From an uncultured bacterium (GTDB lineage Bacteria; Verrucomicrobiota; Verrucomicrobiia; Verrucomicrobiales; DEV007), in assembly GCA_963977015.1 (NCBI GenBank), contig CAXBMO010000007.1:160001-224000 (forward strand): a stretch of DNA of 64,000 bases, written 5' to 3'. The notes below the pieces were generated by a model, which saw only the letters and a list, made by a program, of their open reading frames with translations, searched no databases and was not told where the DNA came from. A program made the translations under genes and the position numbers. Positions 54,119-64,000 of this stretch are shown in pieces. The stretch's first letter is position 1. Each line of letters opens with the position of its first letter.

Positions 54119-54367
54119 GATGTTGGCGAAGATCGCTCCGTGACTCATCCTGTCAATTTCCGAACTGAGGATCGTCCAATCCGAGCGACTTTCACCTCTT
54201 ACCGCATTCCTCGTCGGTTCTGCCTGAAGTCCCTGATCACCGGTTCCAATCAATGCGCTGAAGCTCTACGATTTGGCCGAATTCGCTTGGTGAATCGAGC
54301 AATTCTTCGCAGTTTGTGTCTGTAGACCTGGATTTGGTCCGTGTATTCTATGTTTTGGATTCCAATC

Positions 54368-56785
54368 ATGCGCTTTCGACTCTTTACCGCTCTTTTGATC
54401 GGCCTCGGCTCTGCTTCGGCCTTGGCGCAATCTTTTGATGAGCCCTTGATCCCGTTTCTGGAGACCCACTGTTACGATTGCCACGACGACAGTCTGAAGA
54501 AGGGCGGTCTGGACCTGTTTGAGCTGGGTGTGGATTTGAGCGACGAAGCCGTTCAAGCGAAGTGGGTTCGCATTTATGATCGTGTGATGCGCGGCGAGAT
54601 GCCGCCGGAGGATAAGAAGCAACCTACAGAGGAAGAACGTCGCGCCTTCAGCCGGCATTTGGCGATGCCCATCGCGAAGGCTCACGAGGAATCCAAGGGC
54701 ACGGTTTTGCGGCGCCTGAACCGTGAAGAGTATGAAAATACGATGAACGACCTGTTCGGCACGAAGCTGGAATTGGCGAAGATTTTGCCCGAAGACGCCC
54801 GCTCCCACGAGTTCTCGAATGTGGGTGAGTCGCTCAGCATCTCCATGGTGCAGATGGAGCGTTATCTTCAGGCCGTCGACCTGGTGTGGGAGGATTTTAT
54901 CGTCGACGACATCAAAGGCCTGGAATCCAACGTGATCCGGGTCAGCTATGCGGAAACCCGGGAGGCCGAGAAGTTCATCGGCACGAGCTGGCATCAGGCA
55001 AAAGATGGGGCGGTGGTCTTTTTTCGGCGAGTGGGATACCCGACCGGAATGCTTCGTGGGTCGGGAGTTCGCGAACCCGGTCGCTACAAGATCCGCGTCA
55101 CCGGGTATGCCTATCAATCGGAGAACCCCATCACCTTCTTCCTCGGCGGAACGACGTTTGCCCGAGGCGTTGAGAAGCCGACTTACGGCTACTATCAATT
55201 GAAGCCGGGCAAGCCGCAGACGATCGAAATTGAGACCACGATTCCTCACAATTACATGGTTCAGATTGAGCCGGAAGGGATTTCGGTTTCCACTCCCGAA
55301 CTGAAGAAGATCGGCATCGAAAACTACAAGGGGCCGGGCCTCGCCATCAACCATGTCGAGATTGAAGGCCCGCTGGTGGAGGAGTTTCCGAAACGCGGAT
55401 ACCGTCTCATTTTCGACGGCATTGATCGCCATGAAGTGATGCCGAACAATCCCAAGGATCGGGAACGAAGCTATTATCGGCCGAAGTTTGACGTTACCTC
55501 GGAAGATCCAAGCCGCGACGCTGCGCAGTCGTTCAAACGCCTCGCGACCGCGGCCTTTCGACGCCCGGTCCAGAACGCTGAACTAACGCCTTACCTTGAC
55601 CTCTTCAATGCTGAAATGGAAAGTGGTTCCACTTTCGAAGAATCACTTCGGACGGGTGTAAAAGCCATTCTCTGTTCGCCCAATTTTCTCTTTCTGCGCG
55701 AGAAACCCGGCAAACTGGATGATTACGCGCTGGCGTCCCGGCTCTCCTACTTTCTCAATCGCACGAGCCCGGATGCGGAGTTGTTGGCCGACGCCGATGC
55801 CCGCCTGTTGGCCGGCGATCCCAAACGGTTGCTGAAGCATGCCGACCGATTGCTGGCGAAGCCTCATTCCGAGCGTTTCGTCATCGACTTTACCGATGCG
55901 TGGCTGGATTTGCGAAACATCGAGTTTACCGCGCCCGATCGAACTCTGTTTCCTGAGTTCGATCCGTTTCTGCAGTTTTCGATGCTGGCCGAATCCCGCG
56001 CGTTTTTCGAAGAATTGTTGGAGCAGAACCTGAGCGTTTCCAATCTCGTCAAATCCGACTTTGCCATGTTGAACAACCGGTTGGGTAGGCACTACGGAAT
56101 TGAGGGAGTGAAGAGCCCATCGATTCAACGCGTGAGCTTGCCCGCCGACAGTCCTCGTGGCGGCTTTCTCAGTCAGGGAAGCGTGCTGAAGGTTTCCGCC
56201 AATGGGACCAACACATCGCCTGTTGTTCGTGGAGTTTGGGTGATGGAACGCATTCTGGGGAAGACGCCACCTCCTCCGCCACCGGGAATCCCGGGAGTGG
56301 AACCCGATATTCGGGGAGCCGAGACCTTGCGGGATTTGCTCGACAAGCACCGAAATTCGGAAACCTGCCGGAGTTGTCACCAGATGATCGATCCGCCGGG
56401 TTTCGCGCTGGAAAGCTTCAATCCGATCGGTGGTTGGCGCGAGCAGTTTCGCAGCCTCAACAACAAGGACAAACGTCCTGAGATCATCGTCAACGGACAG
56501 AATGTTCGTTACCGCATCGGACCCGAAGTCGACTCAAGTGGTCAGCTTGCCGATGGAAGTGAGTTTGCCGGTTTCAATGAGTTCCGGACCTTGCTGGCTC
56601 AAGATCAATCCACCCTGGCCCGCGCCCTCGTAACCAAGTTCCTTATCTTTGCCACGGGCCGCGAAATGGGATTTTCGGACCGTCCTGAAATCAACCGGAT
56701 CGTGAAGACCGCCGCCAAGCAGGGATACGGGGTCCGTGATCTCTTGCATCTCGCGATTTCCAGCGACATTTTTCAAAACAAATAG
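54368..56785 (+). CDS. DUF1592/DUF1588 (PSD) domain c-type cytochrome protein
   Basis: Signal peptide, CYDCH, MPP, LRRLNREEYENTM.DL, AFRRP, LASRLSYFL, TSPVVRG.WV, PPPPP, CRSCH..IDPPGFALE.F. Confidence 0.92.
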   Translation: MRFRLFTALLIGLGSASALAQSFDEPLIPFLETHCYDCHDDSLKKGGLDLFELGVDLSDEAVQAKWVRIYDRVMRGEMPPEDKKQPTEEERRAFSRHLAMPIAKAHEESKGTVLRRLNREEYENTMNDLFGTKLELAKILPEDARSHEFSNVGESLSISMVQMERYLQAVDLVWEDFIVDDIKGLESNVIRVSYAETREAEKFIGTSWHQAKDGAVVFFRRVGYPTGMLRGSGVREPGRYKIRVTGYAYQSENPITFFLGGTTFARGVEKPTYGYYQLKPGKPQTIEIETTIPHNYMVQIEPEGISVSTPELKKIGIENYKGPGLAINHVEIEGPLVEEFPKRGYRLIFDGIDRHEVMPNNPKDRERSYYRPKFDVTSEDPSRDAAQSFKRLATAAFRRPVQNAELTPYLDLFNAEMESGSTFEESLRTGVKAILCSPNFLFLREKPGKLDDYALASRLSYFLNRTSPDAELLADADARLLAGDPKRLLKHADRLLAKPHSERFVIDFTDAWLDLRNIEFTAPDRTLFPEFDPFLQFSMLAESRAFFEELLEQNLSVSNLVKSDFAMLNNRLGRHYGIEGVKSPSIQRVSLPADSPRGGFLSQGSVLKVSANGTNTSPVVRGVWVMERILGKTPPPPPPGIPGVEPDIRGAETLRDLLDKHRNSETCRSCHQMIDPPGFALESFNPIGGWREQFRSLNNKDKRPEIIVNGQNVRYRIGPEVDSSGQLADGSEFAGFNEFRTLLAQDQSTLARALVTKFLIFATGREMGFSDRPEINRIVKTAAKQGYGVRDLLHLAISSDIFQNK

Positions 56786-56812
56786 CCCCTTCCACTCCGT
56801 CCACCTTTCGCC

Positions 56813-58111
56813 ATGAACAGCCCTCACCTCGCTACCGGTTCCCACCTGAGCCGACGCCACTTTCTCCGCGGAACCGGCGCAGCCGCCTTGAGCCTTCCGA
56901 TTCTGGACGCCATGACTCCGGCGTTTGCCGCAACGGCCCCGGCAAAGTCGCCACCCCGATTTGTCGCGATGTGCGCCGGCCTCGGATTCCATACGCCTTA
57001 CCTGTTTCCTGAGAAACCCGGCAAAGACTATCAGGACACCCCCTACCTGAGCCGCTTGAAGGCGCATCGCAATCAGATGACGATCTTGTCGGGATTTTCA
57101 CATCCCGAACAACAGGGAAACAATGGACACGCATCCAGCCTGACGTGGTTGACCTCGGCAAAACGACCGGGGTTGGCAGGCTTCAAGAACAGCATCTCCC
57201 TTGATCAGCTGATTGCCAGCCAGATCGGGATTGAAACGCGATATCCCTACCTCACGCTTTCTTCTGGGGGCAGTTCGCTTTCCTGGACCTCCAACGGGGT
57301 CGAGATTCCAGCCCAGAATTCTCCCGCCAATATTTTCAAGGCGCTTTTTATCGATGGGACGGAAGCAGAGATTGCCGCTGAGATGCGAAGCTTCCAACGG
57401 GGACGAAGCATTATGGATACCGTATTGGGAGAAGCGAAGAAGCTGCACAATGAGCTGGGGCATCGCGACCAGGAGAAGCTTGACGAGTATCTGACTTCGG
57501 TTCGTGAGCTCGAACAACGCCTCCAGCAATCCGAGAACTGGTCCCAACAGCCCAAGCCCAAAATTGACGCCGAACCGCCTACCGACATTAGTGATCGGAA
57601 TGACATCATTGGGAAGCAACGGCTTCTGAATGACATGATCGTTCTGGCGCTGCAAACGGATTCGACAAGAACCGTGACGTTCCAATTGGGCAGTCTCAAC
57701 TCACCGCCCAGCAATATCGAGGGAGTGAACACCGATTGGCACAACCTCTCACACCACGGCAAGGACGAAGCCAAGATCGAAGAATTGAAACTGATTGAGG
57801 AAGCGGAGTTTGATGTCTTCAACGAGTTCCTCACCAAGCTCTCCAGCATCAACGAGAACGGCCAGACGCTCCTGGACCGCACATCGGTTCTGTATGGTTC
57901 GAATCTGGGGAATGCGAGCAGCCACAACTGGCGCAACCTTCCCTTGATCCTCGCCGGTGGCGGATTCAACCACGGTTCCTACATCGCGCATGATCCTGAC
58001 AACAATACGCCATTCGCCAACCTCCTGGTTCCGTTGGCGCAGCGCATGGGAGTCGAGATCGACCAGTTCGGGAGCAGCACCTCAGCGGGAATCGCGGAGT
58101 TGAGCGTGTGA
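56813..58111 (+). CDS. DUF1552 domain protein (Tat-exported)
   Basis: LSRRHFLRG Tat motif, LP.LDAM, NSISLDQ, LDEYLTSVRELE, ALQTDSTR, WH.LSHHG, GSNLGNASSH, NLPLILAGG. Confidence 0.92.
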   Translation: MNSPHLATGSHLSRRHFLRGTGAAALSLPILDAMTPAFAATAPAKSPPRFVAMCAGLGFHTPYLFPEKPGKDYQDTPYLSRLKAHRNQMTILSGFSHPEQQGNNGHASSLTWLTSAKRPGLAGFKNSISLDQLIASQIGIETRYPYLTLSSGGSSLSWTSNGVEIPAQNSPANIFKALFIDGTEAEIAAEMRSFQRGRSIMDTVLGEAKKLHNELGHRDQEKLDEYLTSVRELEQRLQQSENWSQQPKPKIDAEPPTDISDRNDIIGKQRLLNDMIVLALQTDSTRTVTFQLGSLNSPPSNIEGVNTDWHNLSHHGKDEAKIEELKLIEEAEFDVFNEFLTKLSSINENGQTLLDRTSVLYGSNLGNASSHNWRNLPLILAGGGFNHGSYIAHDPDNNTPFANLLVPLAQRMGVEIDQFGSSTSAGIAELSV

Positions 58112-59214
58112 TCTACGACGTCATTGTTCTGGGAACGGGGGGAGTCGGCAGTGCCGCGCTTCACCATCTGGCACAGCGCGGAGTCCGGGTTCTCGGCCTT
58201 GATCAGTTTCCCGGCGGTCACAGCTTGGGGAGTTCGCACGGGGCGACGCGCATCATCCGCAAGGCCTACTTCGAACATCCCAATTACGTTCCCCTGCTGA
58301 ACCGTGCTTATGACCTGTGGAAAGCGCTCGAAGCGGAAACCCGGAAGCCGCTCTATGCCGAAACGGGCCTGGTTGAAGTTGGTCCACCCGATGGGGCGAT
58401 CGTTCCCGGCGTTCTCAAAGCCGCTGCGGAACACGGACTACCGGTCGAAACCATTGCCGAACGGGATTTCCGCGATCGTTTTCCCGCTCTGCGACTTCCC
58501 GAAGGGGCTGTTGCGTTGTTTGAACAGGAAGCGGGTTTCCTTCGGGTTGAAGACTGCGTTCTCGCGCATCTCCAGTCTGCGAGCGAACACGGTGCCAGTT
58601 GGAAACAGGAGAGCGTGATCGGCTGGGAAGCGGACGGTTCTGGAGTTGTGGTCGAGACATCTGAACAACGCTATCAGGCCCAGTCGCTTGCCATCGCCGC
58701 GGGCGCGTGGTCGGGCCCCATGCTTCGGGACATTGGGCATCCCCTGCGCATTTTGCTGCAACATCTACTTTGGTATGAAAGCGGCGAAGCTACGACGTTG
58801 GAATCCGGATTTCCCTGCTTTTTCTACGAAACCGGCGAGGGCTACTTCTATGGTTTTCCGAAACTCGACGCGCAGGGCTTGAAGGTGGCCGAGCATGGAG
58901 GAGGCGTCGAGATTCCAGTCCCCCAAAAGGCGGCAGAGGTTAATCCAAAGGTGGAGGGACGAATTGAAACGTTTCTTCGCGAAAACATCCCCAGTGTGTC
59001 CAACACAAGGACGCGCCATGAGTCGTGTTACTACACGATGTCCCGGGACGAACACTTCATCGTGGACCGTCACCCGATTCATGAGCAGGTCAGCTTTATC
59101 GCCGGGCTCTCCGGCCACGGATTCAAGTTCGCATCAGTTCTGGGTGAGGCATTGGCCGATTTGGCGACCGGGAAAAACCTTTCGAGCGAGTTTGATTTCC
59201 TGAGGCTTCGATAG
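58108..59214 (+). CDS. solA: Monomeric sarcosine oxidase / N-methyltryptophan oxidase family flavoprotein
   Basis: GTGGVG, GSSHGATRIIR.AY.E, AGAW, FYGFP, CYYT.SRD.HF (FAD-attachment Cys position), SGHGFKFA; GTGA overlap. Confidence 0.88.
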   Translation: MIYDVIVLGTGGVGSAALHHLAQRGVRVLGLDQFPGGHSLGSSHGATRIIRKAYFEHPNYVPLLNRAYDLWKALEAETRKPLYAETGLVEVGPPDGAIVPGVLKAAAEHGLPVETIAERDFRDRFPALRLPEGAVALFEQEAGFLRVEDCVLAHLQSASEHGASWKQESVIGWEADGSGVVVETSEQRYQAQSLAIAAGAWSGPMLRDIGHPLRILLQHLLWYESGEATTLESGFPCFFYETGEGYFYGFPKLDAQGLKVAEHGGGVEIPVPQKAAEVNPKVEGRIETFLRENIPSVSNTRTRHESCYYTMSRDEHFIVDRHPIHEQVSFIAGLSGHGFKFASVLGEALADLATGKNLSSEFDFLRLR

Positions 59215-59221
59215 ATTGGAT

Positions 59222-62200
59222 CTAACGAACCTCCAGCAGCACCGGTTGGGTTTCCCCACGAACTTCGGGCTCATAGTATTGATACGCGACGCTGGCTGGG
59301 GCCTGCACCTTGACCGGGAACTTTGCCCGCAACTGATAGCGGAACTGCAATGGCTTTCCATCTCCCGGAATCGCATTAAAATAGAGTGTGACTTGGCGTC
59401 CCTTTGGCTCGAATCGTTGGATGGTGCCCTTCTTCAACAACGCCTGAAAGGAGGCTGCCTCGATTTCAAAACCTGGTGGGATTCCGAGGTCAACCAGCGT
59501 CATGGGTGCAAAACCCGGGCGGTTGTAACGCAGGGTCACGTCAACGTTGAGAAGATCGCGGCTCGCCAATTCCGTCGTTTCGTAATCGGTTTCGATCTCC
59601 AGGATTTGCTCGGTTTCGCCTTCCTCGTCCGCATGAGGTTCGTAGTGCACCGCAACCAGCTGGTAGGCAAGGTTCGCCTCGCGATTGATGTTGAGAACGA
59701 CTTCGTTGTCCCCGGCTTTCACGAACTCGGTCAGACTGACCAGGTGGAAAACATCTGCGTTTTCCTTCGTAATTTCGAGCGGATTGGTCACGTCTCCATT
59801 TGCCGAGATCTGAACCGTCACGGCGCCTTTGATCTTACCTGCTGAGCCGGCCCCCATCAGCAAGGCGCGCATCGCCTGGACCGTCGCCTGAGTTGAATGC
59901 CAGGTTCCGCCGCTGTCACGCTGGGAGATCAGCCAGGCCAGGGCTTTGTGCGCCGTTGAAATAGAAGCATTCGCGCGCATCATCGCCTGGGCAATCAAGG
60001 CCGTGGTTTCAATGTCGAAAGAGCCACCCCGGCCATAGGTCAATCCCTCCCCTTCCGCTTTCCAAAACACAACGCCGTCCTGCTCCTGCTTCATCGAATC
60101 CAACTGGCGAATCACCTCACGCGCCTCCGCATCTCTTCCCGCCGTGACAAACGCGTTTGCGACCAACGCCAACGTGTAGGCGTCATTGACGCCGTCACTC
60201 TTCGCGGCCAGAAAGTCAAAGCTTGCATCCAGTTCCTTCCCGCCACCAGCTTCGGCAACGGCCCAGGCGATGTAAGCGGTGGAACGCAACGCCGCGTCTT
60301 CACGCGAGTTCTTGAAATTGTTGATCGCACCTTCAGCGATTCCACCCGTGGGAGGATCCCAGCTTCCATTATTCTGGCGCTGTTGCATGAGCCAGCTCCG
60401 CGTGCGCTCGATCACAGCTTGGTCGACTTCATAGACTTTGGCCATGTCCACGAACTCCATCAGGCCATACGCGGTCAGGATCGTGTGGGCCGGAGGATTT
60501 CCAAACCAATCAAATCCTCCTCCATTCACTTCGTAGGACAACAGTCGCTGATATCCCTGGGCAATAAAGTCCAAGGCCTTCATCTCCAATTCCGGCTTAG
60601 CCTGTTTCGTATCGCGAAGATAGTTCAACACCAGCACATTCGGATAGGTGGTCGATGAGGTTTGCTCGAAACAACCGTAGGGCATTCGGAAGATGGAGTC
60701 CATGCCCTCCACGACCTGGCTAAACGCTCCGGGATAGATCTTCACAAAGAGGTCACTGCCACCGGAAATCGCATTTGCCGGGATCTGGATGCTCTCCTGC
60801 GTTTCTGTTGTGAGCCTCCCATTCTTTACAAGCTCCATTCTCTCACCATTCGGAACCACCCGAACCGTGCGTTCAACGGCATCGGCCAACTTTGATCCCT
60901 GCGCAAAGACCGTGAGGGAGTGACGTCCCGCTTCCAGCGCGCGAATGCGATAGCTCGACTGCATCACTCCACCTCCCGAAGCTTCGAGTGTTTTTTCCGG
61001 GACGTCAGATACCAACTCATACCAGTCTTCGGCTTGGGCCTTGAGCTGAATCGATTGCGGCTCTGAGAGATAATTGAAAATGGCGATCGGAATCGTAATT
61101 TCGTCGCCCTGGGTCAGTTCAGTCGGGAAATCGATATCGATGAAGAAATCCTGGAATACACGAATTCCACGCTCAAACGAGCCGAGTGATCCGTCTCGCG
61201 ACACCGCACTTCCTGACAATCGCCAGGTCGTGATCGAGTCGGCGAGCGCCAACTCCAACGAAGCCTTCCCATCAGCACCGGTTAGAAGCTGCGGTTGCCA
61301 CAAGAGGGTCTCTGGGAAATGGCGGCGAATCCGGGGAGGTTCGGCTTCACTGCCATCGTGACCATTTGGACCAAGTGAGCCAGCTTCGGACCTTCCAAAA
61401 GCGGCCTCGGCCACCATCATGTCACCATCAAATCGTTCCGCCTTTTCGATGAAGACGTCCAATGCATTCTGGGTCCTCCCGCCGTCCGCAAACGCCCCCA
61501 ACTTGGAGAAGACCGCCAGAAGAATTACCGGGATCAGGGTGAAGGCGGTATTTGCCACGAGGATTCCCAGCCTTTGCGGAAGGGTTTGCCAACCGCTCAA
61601 GGACTTTCGCAGGAATCCAATCAGCCCCGCCAGCAAAAAGAGAATCACAAACGAAGCCAGGGTCAACCGCAGGAACGTCGATTCATGGATTGCAGAACGA
61701 TTCGACTCATTGGCGACGACGAACCCCGTTACCATGAGCCCGGAAAGGCCATAGACAATCGGGATCAACACGACCATCTGGCGGAACAGCGAGAGGTGCC
61801 TGCTAGAATGCTTCAGCCTGCGGAGCTCCGCAGATTTGATTCCGAGCCACACGGTTCCCGTGATCATCAACACTACCCAAATAACGAACGCCATGGGAGC
61901 GGATAGATAGCCGATCGCCCGGCCGATCAGCATCATCAGAATTGGAGGCGCCAGCGTCGCGGTCAGGATGATCCAGAAAAATTGGCGCATGCGTCGTTGA
62001 AATTCGATGAGGTGAAGTTCTTCGGACTCGCCCGGGCGGAAGCGCAAACGCGACAGTCCGTAGCCCGCAAAGACCAGCGAACAAACGATCAACAAGCCAA
62101 AAGGAAAGGTTACCAACAACCGGAACAACTCATCAGCATTCTGGCGCTTGCGTTCCTGCAGTTTATTGCGGCGCTCTGCCTGGGAACTGCTCTCCGCAGA

Positions 62201-64000
62201 GATCGGTCCGCCGGGATCGGCAGCCGCGGCGAAGGCAATGACATTCGCTTCTTCGAGCTCAGGCGTCGGCGCCCCGGGATCCGGTATTGCCGTGAAGTCT
62301 GACGGAGGTTGAGCGACAAACTGCGCTCTCGGTTTGAGGATTTCTTCCTGGATCAGGAAATACATTTCTTCCAGTCCGGGGCGAGAGTCGTTCAGTGCAA
62401 AAACGGCCTCATCAACTGCGGCAAGACTCAGGGCGGCCTCGACAGGTGATCCGTCCTTCGACGTGACCAGGAACTCGATCATTGCCTTCTCCGCGGGTCG
62501 ATACGTTTCGGCGTCGAGCTTGGCCTGAACCTGGAGTTGGTCCGCGCGATGCACCTGGATCAGCTTGGAATCCCGGGCGATGTCTCCGTTATCCAGAATT
62601 GCGTAGGCCTGCAGTTGAAGCGTCCCGGCAAGGTCGAGCGGGATATCGTAGGCATATTCTCCCATTCCGCGTTTCAACTCGATCGAGGACGTCGCCAAGG
62701 ATCGACCATTTTTCACAACATCGAGGAACACACGTTTCGCTTTTGACGCAGAAAGCACCTTCAAGTTGGCAGTCTGCCCCTGTCGGTAAATCGCCCCATC
62801 AGTCCTAAGCAGGATCCCATCGACCTGCACGCCAACCGCAAGCTCCTTGGTCACCTTCACCTCGGCACCCCGATCCGAGCGGGCTGAAAGCGACAGCTTC
62901 AAGTTCGGTTTGTCAGGAGTCAGCTTCACCTTGCCAATTCCCAACTCATTGGTTTCCACGCGAGACCCTCCTCCGGTGTAGATAACTGCTTTGGCAGGCG
63001 TCCCGTCCGGATAGGCCGCCACGATGTAGAGCGTATTCTCCACGTTTTGAACCAGTTCACCGCTTTCCGGGAAGACCTCGACGCGCAACGGCTGATTCGT
63101 CACCTTGACCTGAAGAGGATGTCTGCGGGTCTCACCGGTTGCATCGGTCACTTCGGCCGTGAACCGAACAAACGCGTCTCCCTGATTCAAGGACTGTCCA
63201 ACGAAGGCATCTTTGAGAGCAATCTCCGTTTCGAATGATCCCTGATCATTCGTCGTTCCTGTGACGGTTTGGAAGGTTCGAAACCGCTCGATAAACTCGT
63301 CTGAAACGATGCGGATCTTGCCTCCCGCAACCGGCTTTCCAAAGGTGTAGTCGGCATTCAACTCAAGCCGGACCTTGTCGCCCGGGGCATAGTAGCCGCG
63401 ATCCGCCCGAAGACTGACCTTGAACTTGGGAAGCACATAGCGCTCGACCTTCACCTCGCGCTCAGAGGTCGTGTCATCAATCGTGACCGCGATCGTATAG
63501 CTTCCTTCGTTGACCTGGTTCGCCAACTTGAAGTCCGCTGACGCGATGCCAAATTCGCTCGTGGCGATGAGCTTGCGGAACACCTTGTTCCCCTTTGCGT
63601 CCCTGACTTCAAAAGCCACCTCACGCGATGAGGCAGGTTTCAGGGAATCGGCCTCCATCGAAAGCGCCCGCATGTGAATGATCTGGCCGGGCTGATAGAG
63701 CGGCTTGTCCGTGCTTAGCATGGTTCGAAAGGATCGCCGAACCGTGATTGACTCCTCGGTGTTCGCCTTGCCGGATTTCCCGCGAACCTCGGCCACCAAC
63801 TTATAAGCCCCTTCCTCGACCGTATTTCTGACTTCGGCGGAGAGATCCGCAATCCCGTTCTCATCGGTTCGCGCAGAGCCGAGACGCCGCGATGATCCAT
63901 CATCCCCAATCATCATCACTCGGACCTTGGCATTCTCAACCGGCCGACGAGTTTCCTCACTTCGCACGAAAACTCGCACCGGCGTGATTTGCCCGGGTTC
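59222..64000 (-). CDS. Alpha-2-macroglobulin family thioester protein with a polytopic membrane insert; N-terminus beyond the window
   Basis: STDKPLYQPGQ, YVLPKF, AAVDEAVFAL, PRIRRHFPETLLW.P, ADSITTW, FFIDI.FP..LTQGD, thioester MPYGCFEQT, GGF.WFG, GTW.STQAT, YYEPE; frame stays open to 64000. Confidence 0.93.
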   Translation of the reverse strand, partial: EPGQITPVRVFVRSEETRRPVENAKVRVMMIGDDGSSRRLGSARTDENGIADLSAEVRNTVEEGAYKLVAEVRGKSGKANTEESITVRRSFRTMLSTDKPLYQPGQIIHMRALSMEADSLKPASSREVAFEVRDAKGNKVFRKLIATSEFGIASADFKLANQVNEGSYTIAVTIDDTTSEREVKVERYVLPKFKVSLRADRGYYAPGDKVRLELNADYTFGKPVAGGKIRIVSDEFIERFRTFQTVTGTTNDQGSFETEIALKDAFVGQSLNQGDAFVRFTAEVTDATGETRRHPLQVKVTNQPLRVEVFPESGELVQNVENTLYIVAAYPDGTPAKAVIYTGGGSRVETNELGIGKVKLTPDKPNLKLSLSARSDRGAEVKVTKELAVGVQVDGILLRTDGAIYRQGQTANLKVLSASKAKRVFLDVVKNGRSLATSSIELKRGMGEYAYDIPLDLAGTLQLQAYAILDNGDIARDSKLIQVHRADQLQVQAKLDAETYRPAEKAMIEFLVTSKDGSPVEAALSLAAVDEAVFALNDSRPGLEEMYFLIQEEILKPRAQFVAQPPSDFTAIPDPGAPTPELEEANVIAFAAAADPGGPISAESSSQAERRNKLQERKRQNADELFRLLVTFPFGLLIVCSLVFAGYGLSRLRFRPGESEELHLIEFQRRMRQFFWIILTATLAPPILMMLIGRAIGYLSAPMAFVIWVVLMITGTVWLGIKSAELRRLKHSSRHLSLFRQMVVLIPIVYGLSGLMVTGFVVANESNRSAIHESTFLRLTLASFVILFLLAGLIGFLRKSLSGWQTLPQRLGILVANTAFTLIPVILLAVFSKLGAFADGGRTQNALDVFIEKAERFDGDMMVAEAAFGRSEAGSLGPNGHDGSEAEPPRIRRHFPETLLWQPQLLTGADGKASLELALADSITTWRLSGSAVSRDGSLGSFERGIRVFQDFFIDIDFPTELTQGDEITIPIAIFNYLSEPQSIQLKAQAEDWYELVSDVPEKTLEASGGGVMQSSYRIRALEAGRHSLTVFAQGSKLADAVERTVRVVPNGERMELVKNGRLTTETQESIQIPANAISGGSDLFVKIYPGAFSQVVEGMDSIFRMPYGCFEQTSSTTYPNVLVLNYLRDTKQAKPELEMKALDFIAQGYQRLLSYEVNGGGFDWFGNPPAHTILTAYGLMEFVDMAKVYEVDQAVIERTRSWLMQQRQNNGSWDPPTGGIAEGAINNFKNSREDAALRSTAYIAWAVAEAGGGKELDASFDFLAAKSDGVNDAYTLALVANAFVTAGRDAEAREVIRQLDSMKQEQDGVVFWKAEGEGLTYGRGGSFDIETTALIAQAMMRANASISTAHKALAWLISQRDSGGTWHSTQATVQAMRALLMGAGSAGKIKGAVTVQISANGDVTNPLEITKENADVFHLVSLTEFVKAGDNEVVLNINREANLAYQLVAVHYEPHADEEGETEQILEIETDYETTELASRDLLNVDVTLRYNRPGFAPMTLVDLGIPPGFEIEAASFQALLKKGTIQRFEPKGRQVTLYFNAIPGDGKPLQFRYQLRAKFPVKVQAPASVAYQYYEPEVRGETQPVLLEVR

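Follow-up and report, generated by a model that had tools for sequence, protein, structure and literature searches.

A verrucomicrobial thioester alpha-2-macroglobulin with a six-helix membrane bundle at its bait site and an adjoining ECF sigma factor that it may control

The 64,000-nucleotide stretch of DNA analysed here (the window) covers positions 160,001 to 224,000 of contig CAXBMO010000007.1 in the genome assembly GCA_963977015.1 of an uncultured bacterium of the Verrucomicrobiales (DEV007). It ends, on the minus strand, within a gene for a thioester alpha-2-macroglobulin (A2M) in which membrane helices interrupt the bait region. The reading frame is open from position 59222 to the window end at 64000, and the genome continuation (locus L002 of the same genome, G000 contig C7; window coordinate = L002 coordinate + 58000) places the start at window-equivalent position 64300, so that the gene spans 59222..64300, 300 bases of it extend beyond the window, and the product comprises 1692 amino acids (aa). 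A longer frame of 1720 aa begins with the first ATG, at 64384; the database record uses the later ATG at 64300, 28 codons downstream. Directly upstream, on the same strand, lies a gene for an extracytoplasmic function (ECF) sigma factor, the stop of which overlaps the macroglobulin ATG by 8 nucleotides (nt; ATGCCTGA), and no terminator-like site is found on the macroglobulin gene's strand. On the downstream side, the neighbour is a convergent gene for a DAO-family flavin adenine dinucleotide (FAD) oxidoreductase (58108-59214) and not pbpC, in agreement with a first-pass annotation of the window, made from the sequence alone, which had remarked on the absence of pbpC after the gene. The features of the locus are collected in Table 1.

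Table 1. Features of the macroglobulin gene and of its upstream neighbour. Positions are those of the window; positions above 64000 are window-equivalent positions in the genome continuation. Residue numbers are those of the 1692-aa form; pLDDT, predicted local distance difference test.
Feature	Position	Strand	Evidence
Thioester alpha-2-macroglobulin gene, in-window part	59222..64000	-	Open frame; Pfam
C-terminal receptor-binding-type domain (A2M_recep)	59252..59503	-	Pfam PF07677, E 4.1e-12
Thioester domain (TED; TED_complement)	59861..60724	-	Pfam PF07678, E 3.1e-48
Thioester motif CFEQ	60662..60673	-	Translation
A2M domain (MG7), right after the invariant R..RR.FPETLLW landmark	61040..61309	-	Pfam PF00207, E 1.5e-21
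Linker 2 on the C-terminal side of helix 6; periplasmic, disorder predicted; best bait candidate	61328..61486	-	pLDDT <50, residues 939-991
Insert helix 6 (in to out)	61499..61567	-	Hydropathy peak 2.41; AlphaFold2 helix
Insert helix 5 (out to in)	61604..61672	-	Hydropathy peak 2.61; AlphaFold2 helix
Insert helix 4 (in to out); nearly invariant Pro inside, nearly invariant Arg before	61712..61780	-	Hydropathy peak 2.13; conservation
Insert helix 3 (out to in)	61832..61900	-	Hydropathy peak 2.23; AlphaFold2 helix
Insert helix 2 (in to out)	61922..61984	-	Hydropathy peak 2.14; AlphaFold2 helix
Insert helix 1 (out to in)	62063..62131	-	Hydropathy peak 2.36; AlphaFold2 helix
Linker 1 on the N-terminal side of helix 1; periplasmic, disorder predicted; candidate bait	62210..62392	-	pLDDT <50, residues 637-697
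First part of the bait-region domain (A2M_BRD), ending at AAVDEAVFAL	62393..62809	-	Pfam PF07703, E 3.3e-11
N-terminal membrane anchor (helix 0), preceded by the WPWLFSGGFW motif	64067-64129	-	Hydropathy 1.93; AlphaFold2
Cytoplasmic head, 55 residues, predicted anti-sigma segment	64136-64300	-	Complex prediction
ECF sigma factor gene, 174 aa	64293-64817	-	Pfam

The gene product matches six macroglobulin families of Pfam above their cut-offs, namely, MG2 (E = 1.6e-30), MG3 (E = 4.7e-9) and the four families listed in Table 1, and the bacterial-type bMG3 falls under its cut-off (23.3 bits vs 34.9). By its sequence, this domain set is of the "eukaryote-type", thioester class. The A2M domain site was also recovered by a family search of the same genome, and AlphaFold2 predicts beta-sandwich repeats in the macroglobulin part. 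Translation confirmed both the position and the integrity of the CFEQ that had been reported at first pass; the extended motif GCFEQ, at residue 1210 of the 1692-aa form, is invariant in an alignment of 53 relatives and present in 105 of the 112 relatives described below, and some of the proteins without it are truncated records. A chain of macroglobulin (MG) domains that includes a bait-region domain, followed by a TED with CxEQ, places the protein in the thioester macroglobulin superfamily, and its thioester is presumably reactive.

What sets the protein apart is the composition of its bait region. In the 1720-aa frame, hydropathy analysis after Kyte and Doolittle (19-residue window, threshold 1.6) picks out seven hydrophobic segments and no more, all other windows staying at or below 1.26: one near the N-terminus (residues 83-110) and six at residues 752-962, corresponding to window positions 61499-62131. 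The latter six coincide with the helices that the first-pass annotation had proposed for the bait region. They form a block that occupies about 210 of the 351 residues separating the landmarks AAVDEAVFAL and PPRIRRHFPETLLW and that is placed between the two halves of the bait-region domain. An AlphaFold2 model covering residues 1-1102 in 1692-aa numbering, built from 45 aligned sequences and with a mean pLDDT of 75.5, has long helices over residues 707-939 (pLDDT 77-92) and helix 0 at residues 58-84 (pLDDT 72-84), and for the isolated insert (53 sequences) the helices are predicted with a pLDDT of 94-98; the structure prediction thus yields confident helices with disordered flanks. In the window protein, the loops after helices 1, 3 and 5 are rich in Arg and Lys, as previously suggested for this sequence, and the same alternation emerges from the averages of 64 relatives with the anchor and exactly six insert helices, in which the mean number of Lys plus Arg residues is 5.55, 1.03, 5.12, 1.17 and 3.45 for the 5 consecutive loops. 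Because these counts alternate, the loops after helices 1, 3 and 5 are assigned to the cytoplasm and, since the anchor has its N-terminus inside and the insert helices are even in number, the two halves of the macroglobulin are assigned to the periplasm. We consider it almost certain that the helices are threaded through the bait site with both halves in the periplasm. The original proposal of an integral-membrane thioester protein with its macroglobulin halves outside is thus borne out by the even helix count, the alternating positive loops, the confidently predicted helices and the conservation of the arrangement in more than 100 relatives.

An artefact can be set aside at this point. An assembly chimera or a frame-shifted pseudogene could mimic an insert, and a chimeric assembly had been raised as a doubt when the insert was first noticed; nothing was found in favour of such an origin, which has next to no probability. 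Contigs of four public sequencing runs from two studies span both junctions of the insert and are free of joints and indels there (one of the four runs is 90-99% identical and hence represents a different strain), the frame is uninterrupted over 1692 codons, and the layout recurs in 105 of 112 relatives from many sources. Open frame, family-wide layout and spanning contigs together rule out both kinds of artefact.

These relatives were collected by a protein search with residues 655-1030 as the query, which returned 112 proteins at E = 0.001 or better. Under the same hydropathy rule, 105 of them contain at least five hydrophobic segments at the bait site, so that the homologs with transmembrane bait inserts envisaged in the first-pass annotation do exist: 85 proteins have six helices, 16 have five, and 4 have eight to eleven, and the remainder comprises 5 proteins with two helices and 2 with none or one. 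The source labels of the family include Verrucomicrobiota, Planctomycetota, Phycisphaerae, Lentisphaeria, and Myxococcota-type and Acidobacteriota-type organisms, with a "Deltaproteobacteria" metagenome-assembled genome, Polyangiaceae and Thermoanaerobaculaceae among further source names. Thus, the family is no one-off and consists of more than 100 sequence clusters with the same layout. A search of 401 genomes of the phylum with the insert gave only 5 matches, including the genome under study, the other four being weak; we attribute the low number to the poor sensitivity of a membrane query with little conservation rather than to rarity. In a tree built from the C-terminal 620+ residues of 175 sequences, 94 of the 96 proteins with five or more helices fall into one clade, outside which only L155 and L136 are placed; a separate clade is formed by the two-helix proteins.

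The bundle is tightly kept in length (201-224 residues) despite a mean identity of just 0.23. Across the 53 aligned relatives, its conserved positions are limited to prolines of helices 1, 4 and 6, one Tyr that follows helix 1 and arginines of the cytoplasmic loops, and no His, Ser, Asp or Glu is conserved within the helices. Searched alone against Pfam, the insert gives T2SSF (E = 0.23) and ABC2_membrane_4 (E = 8) as its best matches, which we take as noise, and it has no match in NCBIfam. Against 1.84 billion representative sequences, 13 matches were found at E = 0.001 or better; those that could be checked are macroglobulins or gene fragments, four short ones begin inside the linker or helix 1, and no free-standing family of the insert was seen among the representatives searched. 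At the structural level, the helix block finds no usable match in the ESM Atlas, Foldseek returns nothing from the PDB at E = 0.001 or better (top template-modelling scores of about 0.2), and a wide VIA-align search yields generic helical bundles only, the best with Z = 11.2 over 135 residues at a root-mean-square deviation of 3.3, below the Z of about 13 that the tool itself expects for helical models. The absence of fold matches is no proof of a new fold, and we read the insert as a plain up-and-down helical bundle that bears no sign of catalysis or transport.

The number of helices and a GLSG sequence in helix 4 of the window protein could nevertheless suggest that the insert is an enzyme or a transporter, for example, a self-cleaving intramembrane protease similar to rhomboids. 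Rhomboids carry a conserved GxSG in helix 4 and a His in helix 6, and the GLSG resembles the former. However, the GLSG is not conserved in the 53 relatives, the helices are devoid of the conserved polar residues that catalysis would call for, as described above, and the sequence and structure searches assign the insert to no enzyme or transporter family, so that this possibility appears highly improbable. The same observation bears on the earlier suggestion that the protein could be shed by intramembrane proteolysis: besides the lack of conservation of the helix-4 GLSG, no gene for a rhomboid or a site-2 protease was seen adjoining the macroglobulin gene, and this part of the first-pass annotation found no support.

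The membrane module probably includes helix 0, to judge from the co-occurrence of sequence features, and forms one seven-helix unit with the bundle. A Trp-rich juxtamembrane motif precedes helix 0, reading WLGxxRFW in most relatives and WPWLFSGGFW here, and it includes a Trp position that never varies among the 53 aligned sequences. The motif is found in 78 of the 91 proteins whose insert has at least five helices, in none of the 56 proteins without insert helices and in none of the 7 with two. The part of the protein that lay out of sight beyond position 64000 turns out to consist of a predicted sigma-binding head followed by the membrane anchor. The head of the window protein, which contains no His or Cys motif, is of a type (AMDGMMKEYGRKGGPGDDEGFIAAV) that recurs in at least 17 proteins, a subgroup without any variation at G16, E20 and E31. 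Other relatives carry different heads at the same place, namely, a classical zinc-finger anti-sigma domain, a helical segment of the RFEELLGLLLDEEI type, or just 8-22 residues; the precomputed annotation lists zf-HC2 (PF13490) at the head position in 16 of the 112 relatives, and HxxxCxxC occurs there in 11 of 64 full-length relatives.

The gene directly upstream encodes a sigma factor that matches Sigma70_r2 (E = 6.4e-16), Sigma70_r4_2 (E = 5.9e-10) and Sigma70_ECF in Pfam; its best NCBIfam match is TIGR02989, a sigma subfamily of Rhodopirellula and Verrucomicrobium, with a score of 114.8 bits that is below the cut-off of 124.55. An ECF sigma factor had been named among the neighbours to look for, and here it adjoins and overlaps the start codon of the macroglobulin gene, which lends direct support to the suggestion that protease attack is relayed to the cytoplasm. 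The macroglobulin gene occupies the position expected of an anti-sigma gene, and the layout of its product, a short cytoplasmic head and then a membrane helix, fits such a role; a recognisable anti-sigma domain is missing from the window protein. A complex of the head (residues 1-55) with the sigma factor was predicted with scores of 0.88, 0.88 and 0.85 in three runs, compared with 0.01 for the best of three controls. The mark that we apply to this score is reached by 116 of 157 solved complexes and by 2 of 215 mismatched pairs, a calibration that is rough, as our own alignments were used. The runs agree on at least 86% of the contacts, with a partner pLDDT of 67-68, and bring head residues 5-24 and 30-41 into contact with residues 6-46 (region 2) and 108-163 (region 4) of the sigma factor. 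The model supports a head that would clamp the sigma factor across regions 2 and 4, and an anti-sigma role of the head is, in our judgement, probable.

Upstream of the sigma gene lies a 294-codon open reading frame (ORF; L002:6814-7698, minus strand; window-equivalent 64814-65698) that has a low-complexity, Arg/Ser-rich translation and no Pfam match and overlaps plus-strand ORFs; it is probably a non-coding region of about 700 nt that separates the sigma gene from a divergently oriented gene for an FAD monooxygenase and where the promoter of the operon should reside. A scan for sigma-70-type promoters upstream found 4 sites against 1.9 expected and is uninformative for an ECF promoter.

The association with a sigma gene extends to other members of the macroglobulin clade, for which we surveyed the neighbourhoods of 80 genome and 80 metagenome loci with a sigma profile iterated from the sigma factor described here (28 ORFs matched), restricting the counts to loci in which the N-terminus is complete and the DNA upstream of it is available. 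A sigma gene lies next to the macroglobulin gene on the same strand in 7 of the 10 loci with at least five insert helices (the present one, L008, L021, L091, L092, L093 and L094) and in 4 of the 5 with two, and in no helix-free relative among those examined. By Pfam, the adjoining gene is confirmed as a sigma factor in L008, L021, L091-L094, L121, L133, L138 and L152. The insert-bearing loci without a sigma gene (L003, L136 and L155) are those in which the cytoplasmic head is truncated or absent.

The segments that would be exposed to proteases are the two linkers that connect the bundle to the macroglobulin body. Among the 53 relatives, linker 1, the membrane-proximal end of which is an Arg/Lys-rich helix, shows a mean pairwise identity of 0.31 and a length of 50-72 residues; linker 2, with an identity of 0.18 and a length of 30-92 residues, varies more than any other part of the protein, and the macroglobulin domains beside the linkers reach 0.53-0.69. 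Being hypervariable, exposed and situated at the flanks of what is the bait site of other macroglobulins, the linkers are the natural candidates for the bait and presumably serve as such.

Collectively, these observations could be accounted for by a seven-helix inner-membrane protein that is at once a thioester trap and the anti-sigma factor of the upstream ECF sigma factor, and that lets go of the latter when its bait is cleaved, a proposal to which we give about an even chance. The protein would be laid out as a 55-residue head, helix 0, periplasmic macroglobulin domains 1-6, linker 1, the bundle, linker 2 and the rest of the trap. In the resting state, the head would hold the sigma factor between regions 2 and 4. 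A foreign protease entering the periplasm would cut either of the exposed linkers, upon which the macroglobulin body would undergo the large rearrangement usual for such proteins and capture the protease via the thioester. As the ends of the bait are rooted in the membrane bundle, the movement could be transmitted through the seven-helix module to the cytoplasmic head, which would then free the sigma factor and switch on the response genes. The specific step in which bait cleavage is the signal for sigma release is the more tentative part, and we put it at somewhat less than even. With respect to how release would take place, RseP possesses a size filter, and because about 600 residues would remain on helix 0 after a cut in linker 1, the classical site-1/site-2 route fits poorly; allosteric release, as in the short CnrY-type anti-sigma factors, seems more likely than site-1/site-2 proteolysis. 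More tentatively still, the protein may be the founding example of a signalling device, a complement-like, one-shot protease alarm built into the membrane, in which capture of the protease and induction of the defence are one physical event.

Several observations weigh against this proposal. For the first 80 residues of the protein, which include the head, Pfam yields nothing at E = 0.01 or better, not even zf-HC2. Solved complexes of sigma and anti-sigma factors are plentiful, so that a high complex score may partly reflect likeness to them. The counts for the Trp motif and for the gene neighbourhoods are confounded by common descent: nearly all insert-bearing proteins share one clade, and the neighbourhood counts are therefore not independent. 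A subgroup keeps the six-helix insert with only 8-22 cytoplasmic residues, and three such loci are without a sigma gene, which indicates that the insert has a role independent of the sigma factor. In L092, an ECF sigma factor with a SnoaL_2-like C-terminal extension (L092:2016-2966, plus strand) directly precedes a six-helix macroglobulin that is headless; this is a different wiring of the sigma-macroglobulin pair. Finally, the long stub that a cut in linker 1 would leave on helix 0, considered above for the proteolytic route, counts on the same side.

The headless proteins bring to the fore the main alternative, under which the bundle is an anchor only: it would pin the bait and both macroglobulin halves to the membrane, so as to catch proteases at its surface and to retain the trap after cleavage, and the head would control the sigma factor in response to another cue, such as envelope stress or turnover. 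Persistence of the insert where cytoplasmic residues are scant and no sigma gene adjoins is what such a function would produce. The restriction of conservation to prolines and loop arginines is likewise as expected for a structural anchor, and the resemblance of the isolated bundle to generic helical bundles, with its subthreshold Z, points in the same direction. Yet the protein already possesses an N-terminal anchor, and six extra helices would be a costly addition; furthermore, a sigma gene adjoins in 11 of the 15 loci with helices at the bait site and in none of the helix-free ones examined, and the length of the bundle is kept within a narrow range. On balance, a mere anchor seems unlikely to us.

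Alternatively, the signal could run in the reverse direction, or the bundle itself could be the sensor, responding to a disturbance of the membrane or its lipids or to a small ligand, and arming the trap or releasing the sigma factor, with the macroglobulin as the effector. The bundle does show a likeness to four-helix sensor bundles, albeit only a generic one, and the bait site of the clade accepts different modules, pseudopilin-like ones among them, which suggests that the trigger is tuned by whichever module is inserted. However, no polar or charged position within the helices is conserved in a way that would point to a ligand site, and it is the macroglobulin domains that are conserved best, with every feature of the trap kept. 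This scenario appears quite improbable.

Comparison with characterised systems places the protein between categories. ECAM (YfhM) of Escherichia coli is lipid-anchored and paired with pbpC. Type I bacterial macroglobulins, to which ECAM/YfhM belongs, are large, monomeric periplasmic traps that are attached to the inner membrane and carry a CxEQ thioester, as described in two papers (PMC4498604, PMC5764988). The window protein is likewise a large periplasmic, inner-membrane-attached thioester trap, but it has no Cys in its first 110 residues and hence no lipobox, and is anchored by helices; it displays eukaryote-type Pfam domains instead of the bMG set, has no pbpC neighbour and contains six membrane helices in the bait site. 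Thus, it is not of the ECAM/YfhM type. Classical bacterial thioester A2Ms are encoded elsewhere in the same genome, by three genes on contigs C1, C3 and C4 (loci L172, L173 and L174); they are 1999, 1840 and 1948 aa long, with CTEQ, CVEQ and CTEQ, respectively, and have no insert helices. Two of these three genes are followed by genes for PbpC-like class A penicillin-binding proteins, and the third is convergent with a hybrid histidine kinase gene.

With human alpha-2-macroglobulin and complement C3, the window protein shares the domain order MG2, MG3, bait-region domain, A2M, TED and receptor-binding domain. In complement C3, the anaphylatoxin domain is inserted at the site of the bait region, so that the same place is used as a variable insertion or trigger site. 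However, the human proteins are soluble and their inserted module is soluble as well, whereas here a membrane bundle is combined with a cytoplasmic regulatory head. Among sigma regulators, anti-sigma factors of the RseA/RsiW type are single-pass proteins released by regulated proteolysis, and the class II anti-sigma domain of the CnrY type is short and released allosterically. As with the single-pass ECF anti-sigma factors, the gene studied here comes right after the sigma gene and overlaps it, and its product would present a cytoplasmic N-terminal segment, a membrane helix and a periplasmic sensor; as with the CnrY-type class II, the head is short. Unlike in known ECF anti-sigma factors, the sensor would be a thioester trap of 1600 residues that re-enters the membrane six times, and the head matches no known anti-sigma family. 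In a paper that re-classifies ECF sigma factors (PMC7826278), the terms macroglobulin, A2M and MG2 domain are absent from the main text and from the searched portion of one supplement.

A further bacterial macroglobulin acting at the inner membrane is MagD of Pseudomonas aeruginosa, a type II, thioester-less macroglobulin with membrane partners, according to PMC3735191 and PMC5764988. In contrast to MagD, which lacks the thioester and operates with separate Mag proteins, the window protein retains an intact thioester and has the membrane part within its own bait site. In the full-text literature searched, we found no description of a macroglobulin that has membrane helices at its bait region or is fused to an anti-sigma domain, so that the first-pass annotation's view of the system as a candidate for an undescribed one has held so far. 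All characterised thioester macroglobulins are, to our knowledge, soluble or merely tethered. What is apparently new is the combination of a thioester macroglobulin with a probable ECF anti-sigma factor, in an architecture that is conserved, widespread and apparently undescribed.

If the proposed trap and anti-sigma functions are indeed united in one protein, macroglobulins would signal in addition to trapping, which would broaden the view of what this family can do. ECF signalling would gain a new kind of sensor domain with a clear candidate stimulus, foreign proteases in the periplasm, and the detection of proteolytic attack on the envelope by bacteria would become directly testable. The arrangement would also be a bacterial counterpart to complement and to the thioester proteins of insects, which couple recognition with immune signalling. 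Beyond the six-helix proteins, the bait site looks like a general plug-in point for trigger modules, given that the wider clade carries pseudopilin-like modules there.

Members of the clade with other bait-site contents are diverse. The two-helix sister clade (L121, L133, L138, L152, P0106, P0110-P0112 and P0115) has a second helix with a Pfam match (E = 1.7e-8 in L152) to the N-terminal portion of DUF1559/SBP_bac_10, a pseudopilin-like family of planctomycetes. Its heads carry HxxxCxxC in L121 and L152, with a weak PF13490 match in L152, and PF13490 is listed in the precomputed annotation of P0111 and P0112. The helix-free relatives have about 240 residues at the bait site (range 197-391; for example, L013, L020, L025, L038, L050, L009 and L011), and in 33 of 75 this stretch bears a GPDGxxxTxDD motif preceded by text resembling DPWGxPY. 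This resembles the head of type II secretion pseudopilins (GspG); Pfam does not call a pseudopilin domain in L013. Larger membrane inserts, of 9-11 helices, arise inside the six-helix clade (P0098, P0099, L008 and L035). P0086 and P0092, with 8 helices and about 1306 aa, appear to lack the thioester domain, as their precomputed Pfam lists contain no TED.

Sigma-like genes also occur at a greater distance from macroglobulins. In ten helix-free relatives, mostly with Acidobacteriota labels (L040, L058, L059, L062, L073, L081, L082, L135, L140 and L143), such a gene lies 1.1-1.7 kb upstream, and in three further loci, where the macroglobulin frame is split, 3.3-3.9 kb upstream. A gene for a CarboxypepD_reg protein stands between the two in L058, L059, L062, L073 and L081, and the protein of L062 carries a zf-HC2 anti-sigma motif. 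By Pfam, the sigma factor is clear in L040 and L082; among the other eight, five match region 4 alone, L062 matches HTH_20 only, and two have no match at 1e-4. We regard this acidobacterial operon as a lead rather than a finding.

Within the window, the gene for the FAD oxidoreductase downstream of the macroglobulin gene is preceded by a planctomycete-type gene pair on the plus strand (54341-58111). The first gene of the pair encodes an 814-aa protein with PSCyt1, PSD2-5 and PSCyt3 domains, and the second a 432-aa DUF1552 (HXXSHH) protein with a weak match, under the family cut-off, to the twin-arginine translocation (TAT) signal.

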